NCBI GenBank assembly: GCA_963677765.1
Contig: OY782392.1
Coordinates: forward strand, 930,001-962,000
Reading direction: 5' to 3'
DNA from: Candidatus Saccharimonadota bacterium
Lineage (GTDB): Bacteria; Patescibacteriota; Gracilibacteria; BD1-5; UBA6164
Length of the DNA stretch: 32,000 nucleotides
Shown: piece by piece, positions 3,888 through 17,135 of the stretch
Position numbering within the stretch: position 1 is the stretch's first letter
How the letters are laid out: each line of letters opens with the position of its first letter
The notes under the pieces: generated by a model
Told to the model about the DNA's origin: nothing
What the model saw: the letters and a program-made list of their open reading frames with translations, nothing else
The model's database searches: none
Program-made: the position numbers and the translations under genes

Positions 3888-4725
3888 ATTGTTGAGATTT
3901 GTATTCAGCTTCATCATATAGTAAATCAAACTCTTTTAATAACTCTGCTCATGTATCTGGTATAACAACATAAGAGTTGTTTATAATAGCATTTTTGTTA
4001 TTTATTAATACATCAAGTAATCTTTTGTTATATTCATTTAAAACATTGTATTCATTTAAGAATTGATTTATAAATATAACATATGTTCTGGCATAATAAT
4101 AATTATTTTGAGTTTCTAAATAATCAGAAATATTATCTATACTTTCATCTGGATTATTTTGTCTAAAATCTGTATCTATTTTTGTTTTTATTTCAGATTT
4201 TCTAGAGTTAGCTTGACTCATAGCTGATTCTAAAACAGTTTTTTGTTCATTTAATTTATTTATTTGTTTTGTTGATATTTCATATCTGTATTCTAGTTGT
4301 TCTATAATTGCTTCGAGCATAGCGGGTTTATCCAAAGCATCTTTTAGTATTTGTTTGAAATCACTTTTTAATATTTCTTTATACTCAGATGTTATAGCCA
4401 TATTTTCAGCTATTATAACATTATTAGCATCGTATTTTGATAATTTTAATTCATCTAGAGAAAATACATCTTTATAAATAGTTGCTGGAATTTCACCTCT
4501 TTGTTTGTATCTTATTCATAGATTTGTTGTTATCGCAACTCATGTTTTTCATATTTCTGATTTTTTTGTACTTGTGAAACTTGATTCTTGTTCTTCTTGG
4601 TTTTGAGTTACTTTATTATCATCATTTTGAGCATTTATAAACAATCATCCAATATTAAAAACACCTACTATTATAGAGGTTAAAGCCAATGTTTTTAATA
4701 GAAATGATTTGTATTGTTTTGTCAT
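3886..4725 (-). CDS. hypothetical N-terminally membrane-anchored protein, 279 aa
   Basis: ATG (minus) 4723-4725, TAA complement at 3886-3888. This extends the 150-aa track ORF in both directions through TGA codons. The N-terminus MTKQYKSFLLKTLALTSIIVGVFNIGGLFI is a signal-anchor-like hydrophobic segment. The rest is helical and polar with no recognised domain. Confidence 0.65.
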
Positions 4726-4856
4726 AACTTTTTAATATTAGTTCTATTTATTTATATTTTAACATAAAAAATTAAAATATTAAAATTTTTTGTTTAGATA
4801 ATTTGATTTTTTTCTATATTTCTTATTATATATTAGATATTATTAATACTTTTATT

Positions 4857-5741
4857 ATGAATAATAAGGCATTCACTCTTGTTGAATTGATAGTTGTTGT
4901 CACTATTTTGGCTATTTTAGGTACTATTTGATTTATATCTTTTACTTGATATACAAGCGAAGCTAGAGATTCTTCTAGAGTATCGGATATGGCTACAATC
5001 AAAAAAGCTATAGAAATATATGAAATAAATAAAAATAAATTACCAGAAATAAGTGATCCAACACCTGTTTACTATAATTGAGAAGTTGTTTTTTATCAAT
5101 GAACTTTTTGATCTAAAACTATAGCTAGTTTAGAGTGACAAATAGGTAATTTCCCAGTAGATCCTCTTACATGAGAACATTATTCTTTTTCTAAAACAAA
5201 TAATTCTAGAGAATATGAATTAGGATGATTTTTTGAAAATGAGAACTATATTTCATTTGTTGAAACAGCAAATGCAGCTTATAAGACAAAAGCAATATTA
5301 AAATGAACATACAATGGTAGGGCTTTATCTATTATAAATTGAACTAACTTACAACTAATAGCTAGTCCTTCTATAACAGTAAATGATTTATCAAGTGATA
5401 ATTTTTCTGATATAGTAGCTTGAAATAAATTTGTTTATGATAAAAAATATAACTTGCCATCTAATTTTTCATCTACAAGTTATGATTTAGCATGATCATG
5501 AGATAAAGTATTTGTTAATCAATCTAGTATAGAATTATACAATTGAGAATTTGATGATTTAAAAAATGATGCTAATAAAATTATATTTTTGGAAAATATG
5601 ATTCAAGCATATGATTCTACAGATTTACAAGATAGTCTTGTTATCTCGTCTTTATTAAGACAAGATACTACTAATACAAGCGAATCATTAAAATATATAA
5701 ATACTTTTTTAGGTCAAAATATATCTGATAAATTAAACTAG
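4857..5741 (+). CDS. type IV pilin / PulG-like pseudopilin with prepilin N-terminal cleavage-methylation motif, 294 aa
   Basis: The N-terminus MNNKAFTLVELIVVVTILAILGTIGFISFTGYTSEARDSSRVSDMATIKKAIEIY is the canonical class III signal (FTLxE plus a hydrophobic helix) with a PulG-like ArD..R..D.....ai..Y continuation. ATG 4857, TAG 5739-5741. Confidence 0.8.
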
Positions 5742-8486: not shown

Positions 8487-8940
8487 GGGGCTATTTATGG
8501 TTTCTATCGGGAGAATCGTCACGGTTATATGCTATCAGGGAGATGTTTGTGACTTCCTTTAATCAATCATAAACAACAATAAATGCAAAAAATAGAATTG
8601 CAGGTGGTTTAGCTGCATTTAAAAATGCTTTAAACCCATCTTTCGTTGCTGCATAATTAGACAGTACACGAAGTAGCCTTCGCTAAGTCGATGAGTGCCG
8701 ATTGGCCTGCTACACAGTTTATAAAAATCCCCGCTTTTGGAGTTTTATAAACTTATAAATAAAAGCTTTTCATAAAACGGTTTTGATCTAGTCTTGTTTT
8801 TTGAAAATACCAATAGATTGGATTATATTATGAGTTTTTTGTTTGTTTTATTATTCATAATATTACTAAAATAAACTATGATAGTAGATGTGTTTCTCTG
8901 GCCTCCCGAGACATGGGTTCAAATCCCATTAGCTCCACCA
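8487..8940 (+). ncRNA. ssrA: tmRNA (transfer-messenger RNA), about 454 nt
   Basis: The 5' GGGGCTA pairs with the 3' TAGCTCC-ACCA, giving an acceptor stem with a G3:U pair (the alanine identity element). The T-arm is ATGGG-TTCAAAT-CCCAT at 8913-8929 and the sequence ends in CCA. An internal tag ORF ends ..VAA-TAA. Confidence 0.9.
8585..8656 (+). other. tmRNA tag reading frame (AKNRIAGGLAAFKNALNPSFVAA-stop if resumption is at GCA 8585)
   Basis: The frame gca aaa aat aga att gca ggt ggt tta gct gca ttt aaa aat gct tta aac cca tct ttc gtt gct gca taa has a hydrophobic ..FVAA end typical of degradation tags. The resume codon is not certain; GCA 8600 would give an 18-aa tag. Confidence 0.55.
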
Positions 8941-8991: not shown

Positions 8992-9150
8992 AACTAATAT
9001 AAAATATTTCGACCGAAATCGCATGTTTTAAGGAAAAATAAGATATTTGTATAAAAAATACTGATTCTAAAAATAAAAATGGCTTAAAATATGGAGTTAG
9101 ACCGAGTTCAAATCCTGAAAGGTGTAAAACTATTTTTTAATCACAAAAAT

Positions 9151-10743
9151 ATGTCAGAAGAACAAAAAAGACAACTTGAAAAAAAGCTATGGGATATAGC
9201 TAATGAATTGAGAGGTAAAATGACTGCCGACCAATTCAAAGATTATATTTTATGATTTATTTTTTATAAATATTTATCTGAAAAAATACAACTAAAAGCA
9301 GATAGATTATTAAAAGATTGATGAGTAAATAAAAAATACAATGAACTAAATGAAAAAACTGAATCTGATATAATAGAAGCTATAAAAGATGAAGCTATTG
9401 AAGATTTAGGTTATTTTTTATTGCCTTCTGAACTATTTTGTGAAATGGCTAAAAAATGAAATTCATCTAAAGAAAACTCATGAGATGAAGAAAATATTGT
9501 AAGTAATTTTATTTTAGATGATTTACAAAAAATATTAAGAAATATTGAAGCTTCAACGATGTGAACAGAATCAGAAGATGATTTTGATAATTTATTTGAA
9601 GATTTAGATTTAACTTCTTCAAAACTATGAAATACATCAGAACAAAAAAATAAACTTGTTTCAAAGATATTATGACATCTTCAAGGTATTGATTTTTGAT
9701 TAGAAACAAATGAATCAGATATTTTATGAGATGCTTATGAATATTTAATAGGTCAATTTGCAAGTGGTGCATGAGCGAAAGCATGAGAGTTTTACACACC
9801 TCAACAAGTATCAACTATATTAGCAAAACTTGTAACAAGTTGAAAAAATCAATTAAAATCAGTTTATGACCCTACTTGTGGTTCATGAAGTTTACTTTTA
9901 AGAGTTGCTAAACAAGTAAAACAAGTTTGAGAATTTTTCTGACAAGAATTAAATAGAACAACTTACAATCTTGCAAGAATGAATATGATAATGCATGATG
10001 TAAATTATAGAAAATTTGATATTAAACAAGAAGATACTCTTGAACATCCTCAACATAAAGAAAAAAGGTTTGAAGCTATAGTTGCAAATCCTCCATTTTC
10101 TGCTAAATGGTCAGCAAATCAAACTTTTTTAACTGATGATAGATTTAGTCAATATGGTAAATTAGCACCTAGTTCTAAAGCAGATTTTGCTTTTATTCAA
10201 CATATGATTCATCATTTAGATGATAATGGTATAATGGCTGTTGTTGTTCCTCATGGTGTTTTATTTAGATGAGCTTCTGAATGACACATAAGAAGATATT
10301 TAATAGAAGATAGAAACTATTTAGATGCTGTTATATGATTACCAGCTAATATTTTTTATGGTACTTCAATACCTACTTGTATTTTAGTATTTAAAAAATG
10401 TAGAAAAGCAGATGAAGATATTTTATTTATAGATGCTAGTAATGATTTTGAAAAATGAAGAAATCAAAATAAATTAAGAAAAGAAGATATAGATTTAATA
10501 ATTAATACTTTTAGAGATAGAAAAATTTTAGAAAAATATTCTTATACTGCTAATTTAGATGAAATAAAAGAAAATGACTATAATCTAAATATATCTAGAT
10601 ATGTTGATACTTTTGAAGATGAAGAAGAAATTGATTTAGAACTAGTTACAGAAAAACTTCAAGAAATAGAAAAAAAAAGCAAAGAATTTGATGATAAAAT
10701 TAAAAAATATTGTGATGAGTTAGGAATTAAAAGTCCATTTTAA
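9151..10743 (+). CDS. hsdM: type I restriction-modification system, N6-adenine DNA methyltransferase subunit, 530 aa
   Basis: HsdM-type N-terminus MSEEQKRQLEKKLWDIANELRGKMTADQFKDYILGFIFYKYLSE, the GEFYTPQQV block, motif I YDPTCGSGSLLL and motif IV NPPF at 10087-10098. ATG 9151, TAA 10741-10743. Confidence 0.95.
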
Positions 10744-10759
10744 TTAAATATCAAAAAAT

Positions 10760-11974
10760 ATGACTACAAGTTTAAAAATACCAAAATTAAGATTTAAAGA
10801 GTTTTCATGAGAATGGAAAAATAAAAATATATGAGAAATATTTGATAGAATAATAGAAAAAAACAAAGAGAATAATTTAAACTCTTTAACTATCTCAGCT
10901 CAAATGTGATTAGTTAATCAAGAAAATTATTTTAATAAATTAGTTTCATCAAATGATTTAACATGATACTATTTGTTAAAAAAATGAGATTTTGCTTATA
11001 ATAAAAGTTATTCAAAATGATATCCACTATGAGCAATTAAAAGATTAAATATTTATGATAAATGAGTTGTATCTACTCTTTATATATGTTTTAGAATTAA
11101 AAAATGATATTCTAATAATTTTTTTGAACAATATTTTAATAGTCAAAAACAAAATCATTCTATACATAAAATTGCTCAAGAATGAGCTAGAAATCATGGT
11201 TTATTAAATATAGCTGTCTGAGATTTTTTTAATATAAAAATTTATTTTCCAGAAATTTTAGAACAAGAAAAAATATCAGATTTTTTATATCTAGTTGATA
11301 AAAAAATTAATTATATAAATGATAAAAAAGAAAATTTAGAAAATTATAAAAAATGAATTATTCAAAGAATATTTAAACAAGAAATAAAATTTAAAGATGA
11401 AAATTGAAATAATTTTTGAGAATGGAAAGAGACAACTTTAAATAAAGTTTTTAAAGAAAGAAAAGTGTATTCCTCAAAATGATTAGATTTACCTCATATT
11501 TCTTTAACTACTCAGTGAGTAGTTCCAAAAAGTGAGAGATACGAAAGAGATTATTTAGTTATGTGAGATGATAAACAATATAAAGTAACTAGATTATGAG
11601 ATATTTGTTATAATCCTGCTAATTTAAAATTTTGAGTTATTACAAGAAACAAGCTTTGAGATTGAATCTTTTCTCCTATATATGTAACTTTTGAAGTTAT
11701 CTGAGAAAATGATGTAAATTTTATAGAATACTTTGTTACAAGAAAGGATTTTATAAATAGAGCTAGAAAATATGAAGAGTGAACAGTTTATGAAAGAATG
11801 GCTGTTAAACCTAGTGATTTTCTTAAATTAGAAGTTGAATTACCAACTCAACCAGAACAAAAGAAAATAGCAAAATTTTTATGAAATATTGATAAAAAAA
11901 TTGAGAAAACAAAAGAAGAATTAGTTGAGTTAGAAAACTTTAAAAAGTGATTATTACAAAATATGTTTATTTAA
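10760..11974 (+). CDS. hsdS: type I restriction-modification system, specificity subunit, 404 aa
   Basis: N-terminus ..PKLRFKEFSGEWK. Two variable target-recognition halves are each followed by the conserved helical repeat (LEQEKISDFLYLVDKKI..LENYKKGIIQRIF and PEQKKIAKFLGNIDKKI..LENFKKGLLQNMF). Starts 16 nt after hsdM. Confidence 0.9.
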
Positions 11975-11990
11975 TAGTAATTAATTCATT

Positions 11991-12929
11991 ATGTTGATAA
12001 AAACTAGAAAAATTATTGATTTGAATGTTTCGAAACATGATGGTTTTGAAGGTTATTATTTATTGATTGAAAAAGTTCAAAAAAATGTAAACATTAATCC
12101 TGATATTTCAATTGAAGCTTGTAAATCTTTAATTGAATGAATCTCTAAATTTATACTTACTAAAGTTGATAATACTTATAAACCTGAAAAAATAGAAGAT
12201 TTATGAAAATTAGTTAAAAGAATGTTTTTAAATCTTTGAACTTATTCATGAGTAGAAATTGAAGATATTTTAGTTAGTAGATTAGTTTCAGTAATTATAA
12301 GAGTTTGAGAAATTAGAAATTCTAGATGAGATGTATCACATGGAAAAATTTATCCAAAAGATGAAGTAAGTGATATAAATTTATCAAATTTTATAGCTTC
12401 CATAACAGATGAATTATTATTTTATGTATTAAATATATTTTTCAATCTCGACTTTAGTTCTGATGAATGAATTAAATATGAAGATAATGAGGATTTTAAC
12501 GATTATTTAGATGAAGAAAATGATTTTATTTTTATATGAAAAAAGAAATATAGTGAAGCTCTATTTGAATTAGAACCAGAAACTTATGTTACAGAATTAA
12601 CAGATTTTAAATTATGAGATGAAGAAAATATTGAAGAAATTGAAGAAGTAATTGAAGCAAAAGAAACTAAACAAGAAGAATGTAAAATAGAACCTAAAAA
12701 AGATAAAGTTAAAAAAATAAACAAGAAAAAATTTAATAAATTCTGTTTAGATAAAAATATTGATTCTTGAAAATTAGAAGAGTTATTAAATTGATATATT
12801 TTTACATGAATAGATCCTACAAATGATGATATAGCATTAGTTTTAAACTATAAACCTGAATTTTCAAAAAGAAGAGAAATTTTAAAGGAAATAAAAGAAA
12901 ATTTAGATAATTTAATAATTGAGGAATAA
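11991..12929 (+). CDS. R-M-embedded protein X, 312 aa: Abi_C-like (abortive-infection C-terminal domain-like) N-terminal region, acidic linker and an HsdR-C-terminus-like tail
   Basis: ATG 11991, TAA 12927-12929, starting 16 nt after hsdS. RVGEIRNSRGDVSHGK resembles the RN...HG core of Pfam Abi_C as I remember it. The last ~65 aa align without gaps to the last ~70 aa of HsdR in this operon (27/64 identical, manual count). Confidence 0.5.
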
Positions 12930-12951
12930 TTTATTTATTAATATTTAAAGT

Positions 12952-14127
12952 ATGAAAAATAAGACACATATCTACAGAGATAGTTTAAATAATGACTATA
13001 AATTAAATTATTCTGAAATAATAAAAGAACTTATAAAAAAATGAATTTTAGATAAATCATTATTAAATAATAATTGAATTCCAGATTTTAAAGAGATTTT
13101 TATTTTTTTAGATTCAAATCGTGATAAATTTGTTGATAAAAGTATTAATCTAAATATAGAATTAGATGAAAAAAGATTACAAGATAATTATATATCATCT
13201 AGATTTCAAGAAAGATTTAATATAAGGCAATTACATTTAGATTCTGTTAATACAGATGAAATATTTGAAATATTAAAAAAAATATATCTATTAAATTATA
13301 ATATTGAACAAGCTTTATTTAGAGCTTTTTCAGATAGAAGAATGATATGATTTTGAAAAGAGTTTTTTGAGATAGTTTTTGATGATAATGAATTAATGGA
13401 TTTTTATTTATTAATTAAAAAAAATATTTTATCTAGACAATTTGATGAAAAAATTATATATAAAATAATTAATAGATATGATTTTAAAAGAGTTTTACAA
13501 AAATTAGAATCAATATTTACAAGTAAAAAAATCCAGATTCATATTGATACTAAATATTTTGTTTCAAAATTTTTAGAAAAAATAGATGTTTTTTCAGAAT
13601 ATACTTCAAAAGAAGACGATGAAAATATTGCGTTTATTGATAAGTTTAAATTAACTAGAGATAAAAAAATTGAATTAGCAGAAAAATATTATAATTTATG
13701 ATTAAAGTTATTGTCTTGAGTTATCATAATTAATTTATTATTATATTTTTTAAATATATGAAATAAAGAGTCATTTGAAGATTTTATACTATGATTCTTA
13801 TGAAATTGAATATTTTTATTTATTGTAGAATTAATTCTTTTTACAATTGGAATATATTGTTTTAAGTTATATAATTTTTACTCAAAATTAGTTGAATTAT
13901 ATGATTCTCATATTTGATTAATTGAATCAGATTTACACTATAAAAATGATGAACAACTAATAAATTGAGGTATTGATTCAGTATTTACATTAAGAAAAGA
14001 AAATACACAAAAAATACATAATTTACCAGATAAGGCATTAAATTTATTAAATTTAAAAACAGATATTAATACTCATTCAGACTTTAGTATTAAAATAATA
14101 GAAAAATTAATAGATAAAATTAATTAA
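12952..14127 (+). CDS. R-M-embedded protein Y, 391 aa: soluble N-terminal domain, two transmembrane helices, C-terminal tail; no recognisable domain
   Basis: ATG 12952, TAA 14125-14127, ending 5 nt before the hsdR ATG. Hydrophobic segments LGLKLLSGVIIINLLLYFLNIG and FILGFLGNGIFLFIVELILFTIGIYCF are encoded at about 13696-13866. The track shows only an internal 101-aa piece. Confidence 0.65.
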
Positions 14128-14132
14128 ATTAT

Positions 14133-16949
14133 ATGAATACAATCCAATCAGAAGCACAATTAGAAAATAATCTTATAAAACAATTACAAGGTCTAGAATA
14201 TATTCCTGTAACTATTAAAGATGAAAAAGAGCTTTTAAATAATCTTAAGAATCAACTTGAAATACATAATTTCAAAACTCTAAATTGAAAAACTTTATCA
14301 GATAAAGAATTTGATAGAGTTTTAAATCATCTAAATAAATGAAATGTATTTGAAAGAGCTAAAATTTTAAGAGATAAGATGAGCTTAGAACTTGATAATT
14401 GAGATAAAGTTTGGATTGAGTTTATTAATATGGATAATTGGTGTCAAAATGAGTTTCAAGTAACAAATCAAATAACTATAGAATGAACTTATAAAAATCG
14501 TTATGATGTAACTTTACTAATAAATTGACTTCCATTAGTTCAGATAGAATTAAAAAGAAGATGATTAGAGTTAAAAGAAGCTTTTAATCAAACTAATAGG
14601 TATCAAAGACATAGTTTTTGAAGTGGTGCTTGATTATTTCAATATATTCAATTATTTATTATAAGTAATTGAGTAAATACAAAATATTATGCTAACAATA
14701 GAAAACAAAGTTTTAAACAAACTTTTTATTGGTCTGATGTAAAAAATAAAAATATCACAAAATTAGAAGAGTTTACAAAGGTATTTTTAGAGCCTTGTAA
14801 TATATCTAAAATGATAACTAGATATATTGTTTTAAATGAAACTGATAAAATATTAATGGTTTTAAGACCATATCAATATTTTGCTGTTGAAGCTATTATT
14901 GATAGAGTAAAGAACTCAACTAAAAATGGTTATATTTGGCATACTACTTGAAGCTGAAAAACTCTTACATCTTTTAAAACTTCTCAAATATTAACAAGAA
15001 TCCCAGAAGTTAAAAAAGTAGTTTTTGTAGTAGATAGAAAAGATTTAGATTATCAAACTACTAAAGAGTTTAATAGTTTTTCAAAATGAAGTATTGATTG
15101 AACTGATAATACAACTCAATTAGTAAAACAATTTGAAGATAGTAACACAAAATTAATAGTAACTACTATTCAAAAACTAAATACTGCTATTTCAAAAGAG
15201 AGATATTTAAAGAAAATGGAAGCTTTAGCAAATGAAAAAGTTGTGTTTATTTTTGATGAATGTCATAGAAGTCAATTTTGAGATACTCATGATAGAATTA
15301 AAAAGTTTTTTGTTAATAATCAAATGTTTGGTTTTACATGAACTCCAATTTTTGCAGAAAATCATAATAATAAAAGAACTACCAAAGATTTGTTTGAAGA
15401 ACAATTACATAGTTATGTTATAACTGATGCTATTAAAGATGAAAATGTTTTAAGGTTTTCAGTTGAATATATAGGTAAATATAAAGAAAAATCAAACACT
15501 AATTTAGATATACAAGTTGAAGAAATCGATACTAAAGAGCTTTTAGAATCTCCAGACAGATTAGATAAAATAACTGATTATATTATTGCTAATCATGATA
15601 CTAAAACTCATCATAAATCATTTACATGAATGTTTTGTGTAAGTTCTGTTGAAACTTTAATAAAGTATTATGAATTATTTAAAAAGAAAAATCATAATTT
15701 AAAAATTGCTACTATATTTTCATATTGAACTAATGAAGATGATAAAGATGCTGACTGAATAATTAATGATATACAAATTGAAGTAAAAGATAATGAAGTT
15801 AATAAACATACTAGAGAAAAATTAGATGAATTTATAGATGACTATAATGGTATATTTTGAACTAAATTTTCTACTAAAGACACTCAAAGTTTTTATAATT
15901 ATTACAACGATATAGCAAAAAAAGTAAAAGAAAGACAAATAGATATTTTGCTTGTTGTAAATATGTTTTTGACTTGATTTGATTCTAAAACTTTAAATAC
16001 TTTATATGTAGATAAGAATTTAAAATATCACTGATTAATCCAAGCTTTTTCAAGAACAAACAGAATATTAAACGAACAAAAATCACAATGAAATATTGTT
16101 TGTTTTAGAAATCTTAAAAATGATGTTGATAAAGCTATTGCCTTATTTTCAAATCCAGAAGCTAAAGAAGTAATTTTAATGGAAAGTTTTGAAACTTATA
16201 TTAAATATTTTAATGAAGCTTTAGAAAAACTTATTTTAATAGCTCCTAGTGTTGAATCTGTTGATTGACTTATAAGTGAAGAGGAACAATTTGAATTTGT
16301 AAAAGCATTTAGAGATTTAATAAGAATTAAAAATATACTTGAAACTTTTGTTGATTTTGATTTTAATAAACTTGATATAGATGCTCAAACTTTTGAAGAT
16401 TATAAATCAAAGTATCTTGATATTTATGATGAAGTTAGAAAAAGAAGTGAAAAAGAGAAAGTTTCTATTTTAGATGATGTAGATTTCGAACTAGAGCTTA
16501 TAAAGAGAGATGAGATAAATATAGATTATATATTAGCTTTACTTGCTAATTTACATGATTCAGATTCTGAACATAAAGAAAAGATGAAAAAATCTATTTT
16601 AGATTTAGTAGCATGAGAAGTAACACTTAGAAGTAAAAGAGAATTAATAGAAAAGTTTATAGAAGAAAATTTATGAAATATCAAAGATACTTCAAATATT
16701 TGAAGTGAATTTGATAAATTCATGATATTACATAAATCAAAAGAATTTGAAAAATTATGTCTTGACGAAAATATAGATTCATCAAAGTTTACTAAACTTA
16801 TAAATAATTATTTATATACTGAAAAAATGCCTTTAAAAGAGGAAATAGCAAATACATTAAATTATAAACCAAAATTACTTGAAAGAAAAAGTGTAATTGA
16901 TAGAATCAAAGATAAAATGCAAGAATTCATAAGTGTATTTGAGAGTTAA
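14133..16949 (+). CDS. hsdR: type I restriction-modification system, restriction/translocase subunit, 938 aa
   Basis: PD-(D/E)xK nuclease block [21 protein letters not shown]. Helicase motif I WHTTGSGKTLT (both Gly are TGA, at 14949 and 14955), motif [12 protein letters not shown], motif [30 protein letters not shown] and motif [14 protein letters not shown] 14133, TAA 16947-16949. Confidence 0.95.
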
Positions 16950-16978: not shown

Positions 16979-17011
16979 AAAGTAGTGAGAAATTTTTCTC
17001 ACTACTTTTTT
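16979..17011 (+). terminator. intrinsic terminator of the R-M operon
   Basis: agtagtgaga-aatttt-tctcactact stem-loop followed by TTTTTT, 30 nt after the hsdR stop. Confidence 0.8.
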
Positions 17012-17135
17012 ACACAATTAATTTTCTCAAATTTCTATAATTTTTCTTGAACTGATCAGGATCTTCGAGGATCGCTAAATGTAATGTTTTTCGACCCTCG
17101 CCTCACTTTTCCCACCAAAACAAAATTAATTTAAC

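Follow-up and report, generated by a model that had tools for sequence, protein, structure and literature searches.

An Abi_C/HEPN-like protein with an HsdR-like tail encoded inside a type IC restriction-modification operon

Among the described systems closest to the one reported here, PrrC is a HEPN-type protein encoded within a type IC locus, which is held latent by the restriction-modification (R-M) complex and freed when a phage blocks restriction (PMC3710099, PMC12707154). Additionally, AbiJ-family HEPN solos have been reported 'in operon with R-M system', and for such associations, described for many HEPN clades, a PrrC-like second line was proposed (Anantharaman et al. 2013, PMC3710099). 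Other precedents for embedded systems are TgvAB, located in a type I operon of Vibrio VPI-2 and able to protect without the R-M genes, and the rlo genes of Campylobacter (PMC11411939). Here, we analysed a 32,000-nucleotide stretch of DNA from a Candidatus Saccharimonadota bacterium (contig OY782392.1, positions 930,001 to 962,000; hereafter the window), in which a type I R-M operon carries two further genes, X and Y, between hsdS and hsdR. X is an HsdR-tailed form of a known HEPN/abortive infection (Abi) gene embedded in type I R-M operons, and Y is most plausibly independent cargo, carried in an operon slot rich in such genes, rather than an obligate partner of X. To our knowledge, the way in which guardian Abi effectors monitor the restriction enzyme that they back up has been outlined for PrrC only, without a structural explanation.

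Operon layout and distribution of X

The GC content of the window was approximately 22%, and translation with table 11 fragmented every gene. With TGA read through, five co-directional open reading frames (ORFs) were obtained on the + strand, separated by gaps of 16, 16, 22 and 5 nt, in agreement with the layout given in a preliminary description of this DNA. These genes, and the parts of X and HsdR that are central to the analysis, were:

9151–10743, + strand: hsdM, type I methyltransferase subunit, 530 aa (Pfam N6_Mtase, E = 1.3e-111, and HsdM_N)
10760–11974, + strand: hsdS, specificity subunit, 404 aa (Pfam Methylase_S, two stretches)
11991–12929, + strand: X, Abi_C/HEPN-like accessory protein, long form, 312 aa (62 homologues, nearly all with PF14355)
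12303–12347, + strand: conserved motif VGEIRNSRGDVSHGK of X, residues 105–119 (family alignment)
12726–12926, + strand: C-terminal tail of X, aa 246–312 (homology to the extreme C-terminus of HsdR)
12952–14127, + strand: Y, orphan membrane protein, 391 aa (alpha/beta N-domain, transmembrane (TM) hairpin, conserved C-terminal helical region)
14133–16949, + strand: hsdR, type IC restriction/motor subunit, 938 aa (Pfam HSDR_N, SWI2_SNF2, T1R_D3-like and EcoR124_C)
16740–16931, + strand: C-terminal tail of HsdR, aa 870–933 (donor-like counterpart of the X tail; approximately the last 65 positions of Pfam EcoR124_C)

Because of this set of Pfam domains in HsdR, the operon was assigned to family IC of the type I R-M systems; it encodes HsdM, HsdS with two target recognition domains (TRDs), and HsdR with a nuclease and a superfamily 2 (SF2) motor. 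The EcoR124_C match (PF12008) had an E-value of 4.7e-64 and covered 258 of the 260 profile positions, and the matches of the window HsdR among PDB sequences included EcoR124I HsdR. Identities of HsdM and HsdR with their counterparts in many bacteria were 55–68%. The analogy with the E. coli prr locus drawn in the preliminary description was a fair one, since X lies in a type IC hsd operon.

The distribution of X was derived from the window, 37 genome loci obtained by scanning 185,579 species genomes, three metagenome contexts and two plasmids. The genome loci spanned at least seven phyla, with members of the Bacteroidota, Acidobacteriota, Patescibacteria, Gammaproteobacteria, Bdellovibrionota, Ignavibacteria, Altimarinota and Campylobacterota. 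A co-directional hsdR was located directly 3' of X in 36 of these 37 loci, the contig of the remaining one (L047) stopping inside X, and hsdM-hsdS lay 5' of X wherever the contig extended that far. All metagenome loci showed the order hsdS-X-hsdR, namely L001 (long form of X), L002-4 (short form) and L008-10, the last from another recoded organism in which an X 49% identical to that of the window was followed by hsdR without Y. Plasmids of Acinetobacter baumannii and Sinorhizobium meliloti carried the order hsdM-hsdS-'abortive infection (family) protein'-hsdR, this being the label that PGAP gives to the plasmid homologues of X. No X relatives were found in the phage records searched. Since placement in an hsd operon recurred in every context obtained, X is an accessory dedicated to type I R-M operons. 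The preliminary description had raised the question whether X-Y homologues are always embedded in hsd operons, and for X the association was in fact stronger than that description could tell, holding at all loci examined.

A short-form X subfamily was observed in L035 and L038-L046 (Bacteroidales, Dysgonomonas, Parabacteroides, Mucilaginibacter). The HsdR of these loci was approximately 24% identical to that of the window and belonged to a second, divergent type I family, indicating that the association of X reaches past EcoR124-type (IC) systems. Frame breaks were noted at two loci: in L015 (~9983–10597) the X frame was interrupted, leaving a 36-aa ORF though the tblastn match was continuous, and in L028 (11124–13947) hsdR was split over two overlapping frames. 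Both are possibly pseudogenes or assembly errors in metagenome-assembled genomes (MAGs).

The Abi_C-like domain of X and its HsdR-like tail

A database search for relatives of X returned 62 homologues, nearly all with a precomputed PF14355 (Abi_C) match, including the database copy of X itself. In our own Pfam scan, Abi_C was matched at E ≤ 1e-3 by 24 of 49 aligned X-family members (best E = 1.1e-8), and searches of X against PADLOC-DB models and NCBIfam gave no match. The family membership of X was assigned through these relatives, because X alone remained below the threshold while family members and the precomputed annotations matched. Judged by such transitive homology, X is taken to belong to a divergent Abi_C (HEPN-like) family, as the preliminary description had suspected from an RN..HG motif.

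That motif, VGEIRNSRGDVSHGK, was located in the most conserved part of the family alignment, the tail being less conserved. Its family form was GEIRNxRGDISHG, with R109, H117 and G118 invariant and R112 conserved in at least 90% of the members. R112-G-D-V-S-H117 of X fits the HEPN Rx4-6H signature, as defined in PMC3710099. X is thus probably a metal-independent RNase, marked by the conserved R109/R112...H117-G118 motif. This catalytic-type motif makes X a predicted effector, if anything, rather than merely the sensor that had been proposed preliminarily.

Outside the motif, an N-terminal helix (NPDISIExCKSLIEG) and a second conserved block (FNxWLDE...YSKALF) characterised the family. About half of its members were short forms (~210 aa) ending after the second block, and the long forms (310–408 aa) had an acidic linker and a C-terminal tail added. 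The AlphaFold model of X (mean predicted local distance difference test, pLDDT, 85.6) consisted of an all-alpha N-domain followed by a disordered linker at residues 220–237 and the tail. It was built, like that of Y, on a database copy with Trp at UGA, resulting in 12 G-to-W changes in each protein. In a Foldseek search with the X model, the top match was the HEPN domain of sacsin (probability 0.87, TMt 0.61); HepT/MNT-HEPN toxins were also retrieved, and the best E-value was 0.7. Any match between the tail and HsdR was probably masked by the use of the full-length model.

The tail of X, a feature absent from the preliminary description, aligned with the HsdR of the same operon (X 246–309 against HsdR 870–933) with 42% identity and E = 1e-13 in BLASTP. 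When a profile of X tails only was compared with a profile of HsdR C-termini only, hhalign returned 99.5% and E = 7.6e-23 over 76 columns, corresponding to the last 76 positions of HsdR. The module was present in all 15 long-form X proteins examined, and long-form X proteins and their HsdR partners alike contained the core ...(D/N)YLFTEKxPLRD...(K/R)PxLKER.... Two long-form proteins, one of them P0033 in L001, matched Pfam EcoR124_C unaided. In most long forms, just the terminal part of EcoR124_C was found; the X of L024 (10451–11098) aligned with HsdR 698–932 (25% identity, E = 8e-10), which is approximately the whole domain. In the AF2 model, the X tail formed an independent, confidently predicted fold (pLDDT ~95), and on EcoR124I numbering it corresponds to approximately residues 963–1026 or beyond, within the C-terminal domain. 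By these sequence comparisons, the X tail is homologous to the C-terminal assembly module of HsdR.

Some residues were shared specifically between X and its cognate HsdR, such as NYKP in both proteins of the window, SYKP in both proteins of L008, and PKLK(E/D)R in L022 and L028. Cognate tail identity averaged ~31%, compared to 28.5% overall, with a clear gap for the window and L008 only. Such operon-specific matches hint at co-adaptation or gene conversion. Neighbour-joining bootstraps of the tails did not separate a single origin of X tails (41%) from an independent capture from the window lineage's own hsdR (32%).

Y, other cargo and the surroundings of the operon

In agreement with the preliminary description, Y was found to be a 391-aa protein with two TM segments and no recognisable domain. 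The two segments showed 19-residue Kyte-Doolittle peaks of 2.14 and 2.39 and formed the following feature:

13693–13872, + strand: TM hairpin of Y, aa ~248–271 and ~277–307 (hydropathy and charge counts; long model helices 200–268 and 275–332)

A K/R-rich stretch precedes the hairpin and an acidic loop connects its segments, so that both soluble parts are predicted from the sequence to be cytoplasmic (N-in/C-in topology). The model of Y (pLDDT 78.6) comprised an alpha/beta N-domain (1–199) and two very long helices that include the hairpin, and the strong conservation in the C-terminal region took the form ELYDSHIxLIESDxxY...RKENxQKIHxLPxK. Searches of Y against Pfam, PADLOC, NCBIfam and PHROGs gave no match, and Foldseek with the Y model against PDB and BFVD returned nothing at E ≤ 1e-3. 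When 20 Y-family members were scanned, no single Pfam family, and thus not SLATT either, was matched at E ≤ 0.1 by more than 2 of them. With neither a sequence nor a fold signal to back it, the identification of Y as a SLATT-type or AbiC/AbiP-type protein was rejected.

Y had three close relatives only, and 25 were retrieved when 1.84 billion representatives were searched exhaustively with a profile. Nearly all of these are stored with Trp at Gly-like positions, indicating that they originate from UGA-recoded lineages. A metagenome scan for Y returned three loci, and L050 was discarded as a 52-residue match. The contexts of Y and its relatives were:

Y in the window: X-Y-hsdR
Relative in L005 (54% identical): hsdS-Y-Schlafen/AlbA_2, without X
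Relative in L051: DUF2130-Y-RhuM, without X
Relative in L048: beside a gene reading as a putative TypA-like GTPase, with no hsd genes nearby
Relative in L056: between pyrG and NUDIX/queA genes

The closer relatives thus favoured R-M or defence neighbourhoods, and the settings in L048 and L056 were non-defence ones, so that an embedding of Y always in hsd operons, about which the preliminary description had asked, did not hold. No Y relative occurred at any X locus beyond the window, among the 37 genome loci and the metagenome contexts. This co-occurrence survey spoke against the central proposal of that description, in which X as a sensor is paired with Y as a membrane effector. Y is possibly a stand-alone membrane-acting defence effector.

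In X operons, the interval between hsdM and hsdR, at the hsdS-hsdR junction, is a hotspot for cargo of many kinds. Cargo confirmed by Pfam comprised a Bro-N protein in L001 and, in L030, a pentapeptide-repeat protein with C-terminal hydrophobic segments. From translations only, RhuM, RhuM with Fic, DUF262/DUF1524 GmrSD-like, KilA/Bro-like and small HEPN-like cargo could be read, as well as HigB-like genes with helix-turn-helix (HTH)/ImmA-like genes, a second hsdS and several small membrane proteins. Diverse cargo loci within X-containing operons were L001, L012, L023, L037, L041 and L042. Unrelated small membrane proteins adjoined X in L012 (143 aa), L023 (185 aa, 2 TM), L029 (234 aa, ~4 TM) and L030 (the pentapeptide-repeat protein, 403 aa, C-terminal TM), and this membrane cargo beside X showed no homology to Y. 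X with any TM effector may be a recurring theme, but approximately 5 of 15 cargo genes (5 loci) fitted it, which was not clearly above the membrane-protein background. In L008, a 247-aa ORF (4408–5151) without a Pfam match follows hsdR after a 4-nt gap and may be extra cargo at the 3' end of that operon; it does not occur in the window.

The operon of the window was flanked at its 5' side by uvrB, a small membrane-protein gene and ssrA, and at its 3' side by a convergent cluster of GNAT, methyltransferase, HD and NUDIX genes. Two features next to it were:

8487–8940, + strand: tmRNA gene ssrA (ARAGORN; Rfam RF00023, 87.9 bits, E = 4.8e-33)
16979–17014, + strand: intrinsic terminator (13-bp stem, 4-nt loop, T-run; hairpin 16979–17008)

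The terminator hairpin had a folding energy of −16.7 kcal/mol (z = −5.2), equalled by none of 200 shuffles, and no second terminator-like site was found on the + strand within the operon, which bears out the single terminator after hsdR described preliminarily. The tag peptide encoded by ssrA was AFKNALNPSFVAA. The gene ends ~150–210 nt 5' of hsdM, according to the start codon chosen: an alternative ATG is open at 9091, but the alignments with homologues begin at residue 1 of the product started at 9151. Because ssrA is a classic insertion site of genomic islands and the housekeeping gene uvrB lies farther upstream, insertion of an island at ssrA is a possible origin of the hsd operon. No convincing att-like direct repeats were detected flanking the operon beside ssrA. 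Separately, the heptamer TTCGACC was observed four times on the + strand of the window (1529, 9008, 16957 and 17090), compared to 0.07 expected, and none of 100 shuffles reached four. Three of the copies bracket the hsd operon, being located in the ssrA-hsdM interval, 8 nt past the hsdR stop and beyond the terminator; the heptamer is a candidate att remnant, regulatory motif or uptake motif.

The use of table 25 in the preliminary description proved correct. In hsdR, 26 codons are in-frame TGA, and at these positions 12 standard-code homologues had Gly in 71.5% of cases, with Trp outside the six residues most common there. For the 4 TGG codons, Trp was found in the same homologues in 73% of cases. 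Public collections were observed to keep UGA as Trp in P0001, P0002, P0003 and P0063-P0081 (e.g., SLIEWISK and RVWEIRNSRWDVSHG), where homologue alignments indicate Gly. In public collections, proteins of code-25 lineages thus systematically carry Trp in place of Gly, a mistranslation that makes searches less sensitive.

Proposed mechanism, alternatives and known systems

The explanation that we favour, with moderate confidence, is that X is a tail-docked, latent RNase that guards the R-M system and that Y is separate cargo. The C-terminal region of HsdR has been implicated in binding the HsdM2-HsdS core (PMC5248579, PMC2878639), from which we infer that the X tail serves as an attachment to the enzyme that X possibly guards. 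Through the borrowed tail, X would be seated on the methyltransferase core (HsdM2-HsdS), either at a docking site of HsdR or close to one, and would be kept latent there. A disturbance of the complex, e.g., by phage anti-restriction proteins, would release or activate X, and activated X would cut RNA and abort the infection in a PrrC-like manner. Y would be a lineage-restricted two-TM protein inserted in the same cargo-prone slot, separately from X. Work by Grinkevich (2018) reportedly likewise implicates the HsdR C-terminal region in methyltransferase binding.

Several results weigh against this explanation. The Abi_C match of X alone scored 14.2 bits (E = 0.05), with a curated gathering cut-off of 24. 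In the X model, pLDDT was only 58 over the catalytic loop (residues 111–120), and no Foldseek match of that model reached 1e-3. The tail-only profile matched no HsdR chain among PDB sequences, and solved HsdR constructs and alignments end approximately where the conserved YLFTEK...KPxLKER core starts, so that contact with HsdM is putative for the exact segment shared with X. Short forms without a tail hold the same operon position as the long forms, and the tail can therefore not be the sole link to the R-M system; there must also be either a further contact of X, for which the second conserved block is a candidate, or a coupling that is not physical. Finally, no experimental study of any X-family member was found in the searchable literature.

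A variant of the mechanism, which we put forward tentatively and hold to be doubtful, takes the long forms as HsdR-mimicking alternative subunits. These would occupy the place on HsdM where HsdR docks, so that the core would carry either the motor or a latent HEPN RNase, and the RNase would be activated by displacement or a conformational change of the complex, e.g., through the action of anti-restriction proteins that mimic DNA. The operon-specific tail matches would then reflect co-adaptation to the same HsdM surface, and Y might be a lineage-specific membrane effector acting downstream or in parallel. If true, the variant would supply a first structural wiring rule for the physical coupling of an R-M guard to the guarded enzyme.

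Instead of being a suicide effector, X could regulate restriction as a decoy that competes with HsdR for the methyltransferase core and so tunes the balance between restriction and modification, e.g., in restriction alleviation following horizontal transfer or DNA damage. The homology of the tail to an HsdR segment implicated in complex assembly, and the position of X immediately 5' of hsdR at every locus, speak for such a decoy. However, tail-less short forms occupy the same position, and the R..H motif of the Abi_C/HEPN domain, which a decoy would not need, is conserved above the tail; we consider this explanation unlikely. It is quite unlikely that both X and Y are hitch-hiking cargo uncoupled from the enzyme, i.e., selfish or stand-alone defence or addiction genes in a permissive, well-expressed slot. 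Many unrelated genes do share that slot, and TgvAB protects without the R-M genes of its Vibrio type I operon (PMC11411939). For X, however, a lack of functional coupling would hardly account for an association that held at every locus examined, over several phyla and in two divergent type I families, nor for the acquisition of an HsdR tail. For Y, hitch-hiking is the preferred reading.

The preliminary proposal of a two-gene abortive-infection module, with X as a soluble R-M-bound sensor and Y as its membrane effector, drew on the adjacency and almost certain co-transcription of the two genes and on a TM hairpin typical of membrane-acting effectors, and the unrelated small membrane proteins beside X in L012, L023, L029 and L030 could be added in its favour. 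It has nevertheless become very unlikely: the window is the sole X locus with a Y relative, hsdR directly follows the 49%-identical X of the related recoded organism, and relatives of Y occur without X in L005 and L051 and in non-defence settings in L048 and L056. The other membrane cargo is neither homologous to Y nor clearly enriched (~5 of 15 cargo genes), and X has a catalytic-type motif of its own.

The favoured explanation, a tail-docked and latent X, would give a simple and testable answer to how a guardian effector follows the state of its enzyme, since the effector appears to have borrowed the C-terminal tail of the restriction subunit from a region implicated in assembly. The X family is widespread (Bacteroidota, Acidobacteriota, Proteobacteria, Patescibacteria and A. 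baumannii plasmids) and has standard-code members, among them those in the operons of A. baumannii pDETAB4, Maribacter ulvicola (L021) and Flavobacterium (L033), which allows direct testing in E. coli or Acinetobacter without recoding. Additionally, the hsdS-hsdR cargo slot is of importance for defence annotation tools, which now report just 'RM type I' here.

Compared with known systems, X resembles PrrC of E. coli EcoprrI (type IC) in that both proteins are predicted RNases of the HEPN type whose genes form part of a type IC hsd operon; prrC, too, presumably has its place between hsdS and hsdR. An ABC-ATPase regulatory domain forms the N-terminal part of PrrC, whereas X had no ATPase match in Pfam, NCBIfam or PADLOC and is therefore not a member of the PrrC family, though it may work like PrrC. 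The HsdR-derived tail distinguishes the long forms of X as well, as we know of no report of such a tail in PrrC. Abi_C/AbiJ HEPN solos belong to the same superfamily as X and share its general R-M operon context, Pfam Abi_C being presumably the AbiJ HEPN family. The preliminary statement that this is not a described system was only partly true, since HEPN proteins in R-M operons were described in 2013 (PMC3710099) and a PGAP label exists; no description was found in the searchable literature of the strict hsdS-X-hsdR placement, the FNxWLDE...YSKALF block or the HsdR-tail fusion.

TgvAB, the Campylobacter rlo genes (rloF) and RhuM/Fic-DOC share with X the operon slot and the idea of layered defence (PMC11411939), but they belong to unrelated protein families, and none has been reported with a module shared with HsdR. 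Y resembles two-TM Abi effectors (SLATT, lactococcal AbiC/AbiP) in architecture only, both combining a cytoplasmic domain with a TM hairpin, with a defence-type context for some members. The tail of X finds its counterpart in the C-terminal domain of type IC HsdR (~887–1038 in EcoR124I, PDB 5J3N), the last ~65–76 residues of which are, by sequence, homologous to it. In HsdR this module forms part of the motor and nuclease subunit, whereas in X it stands apart from motor and nuclease and is joined to the Abi_C domain by a disordered acidic linker.

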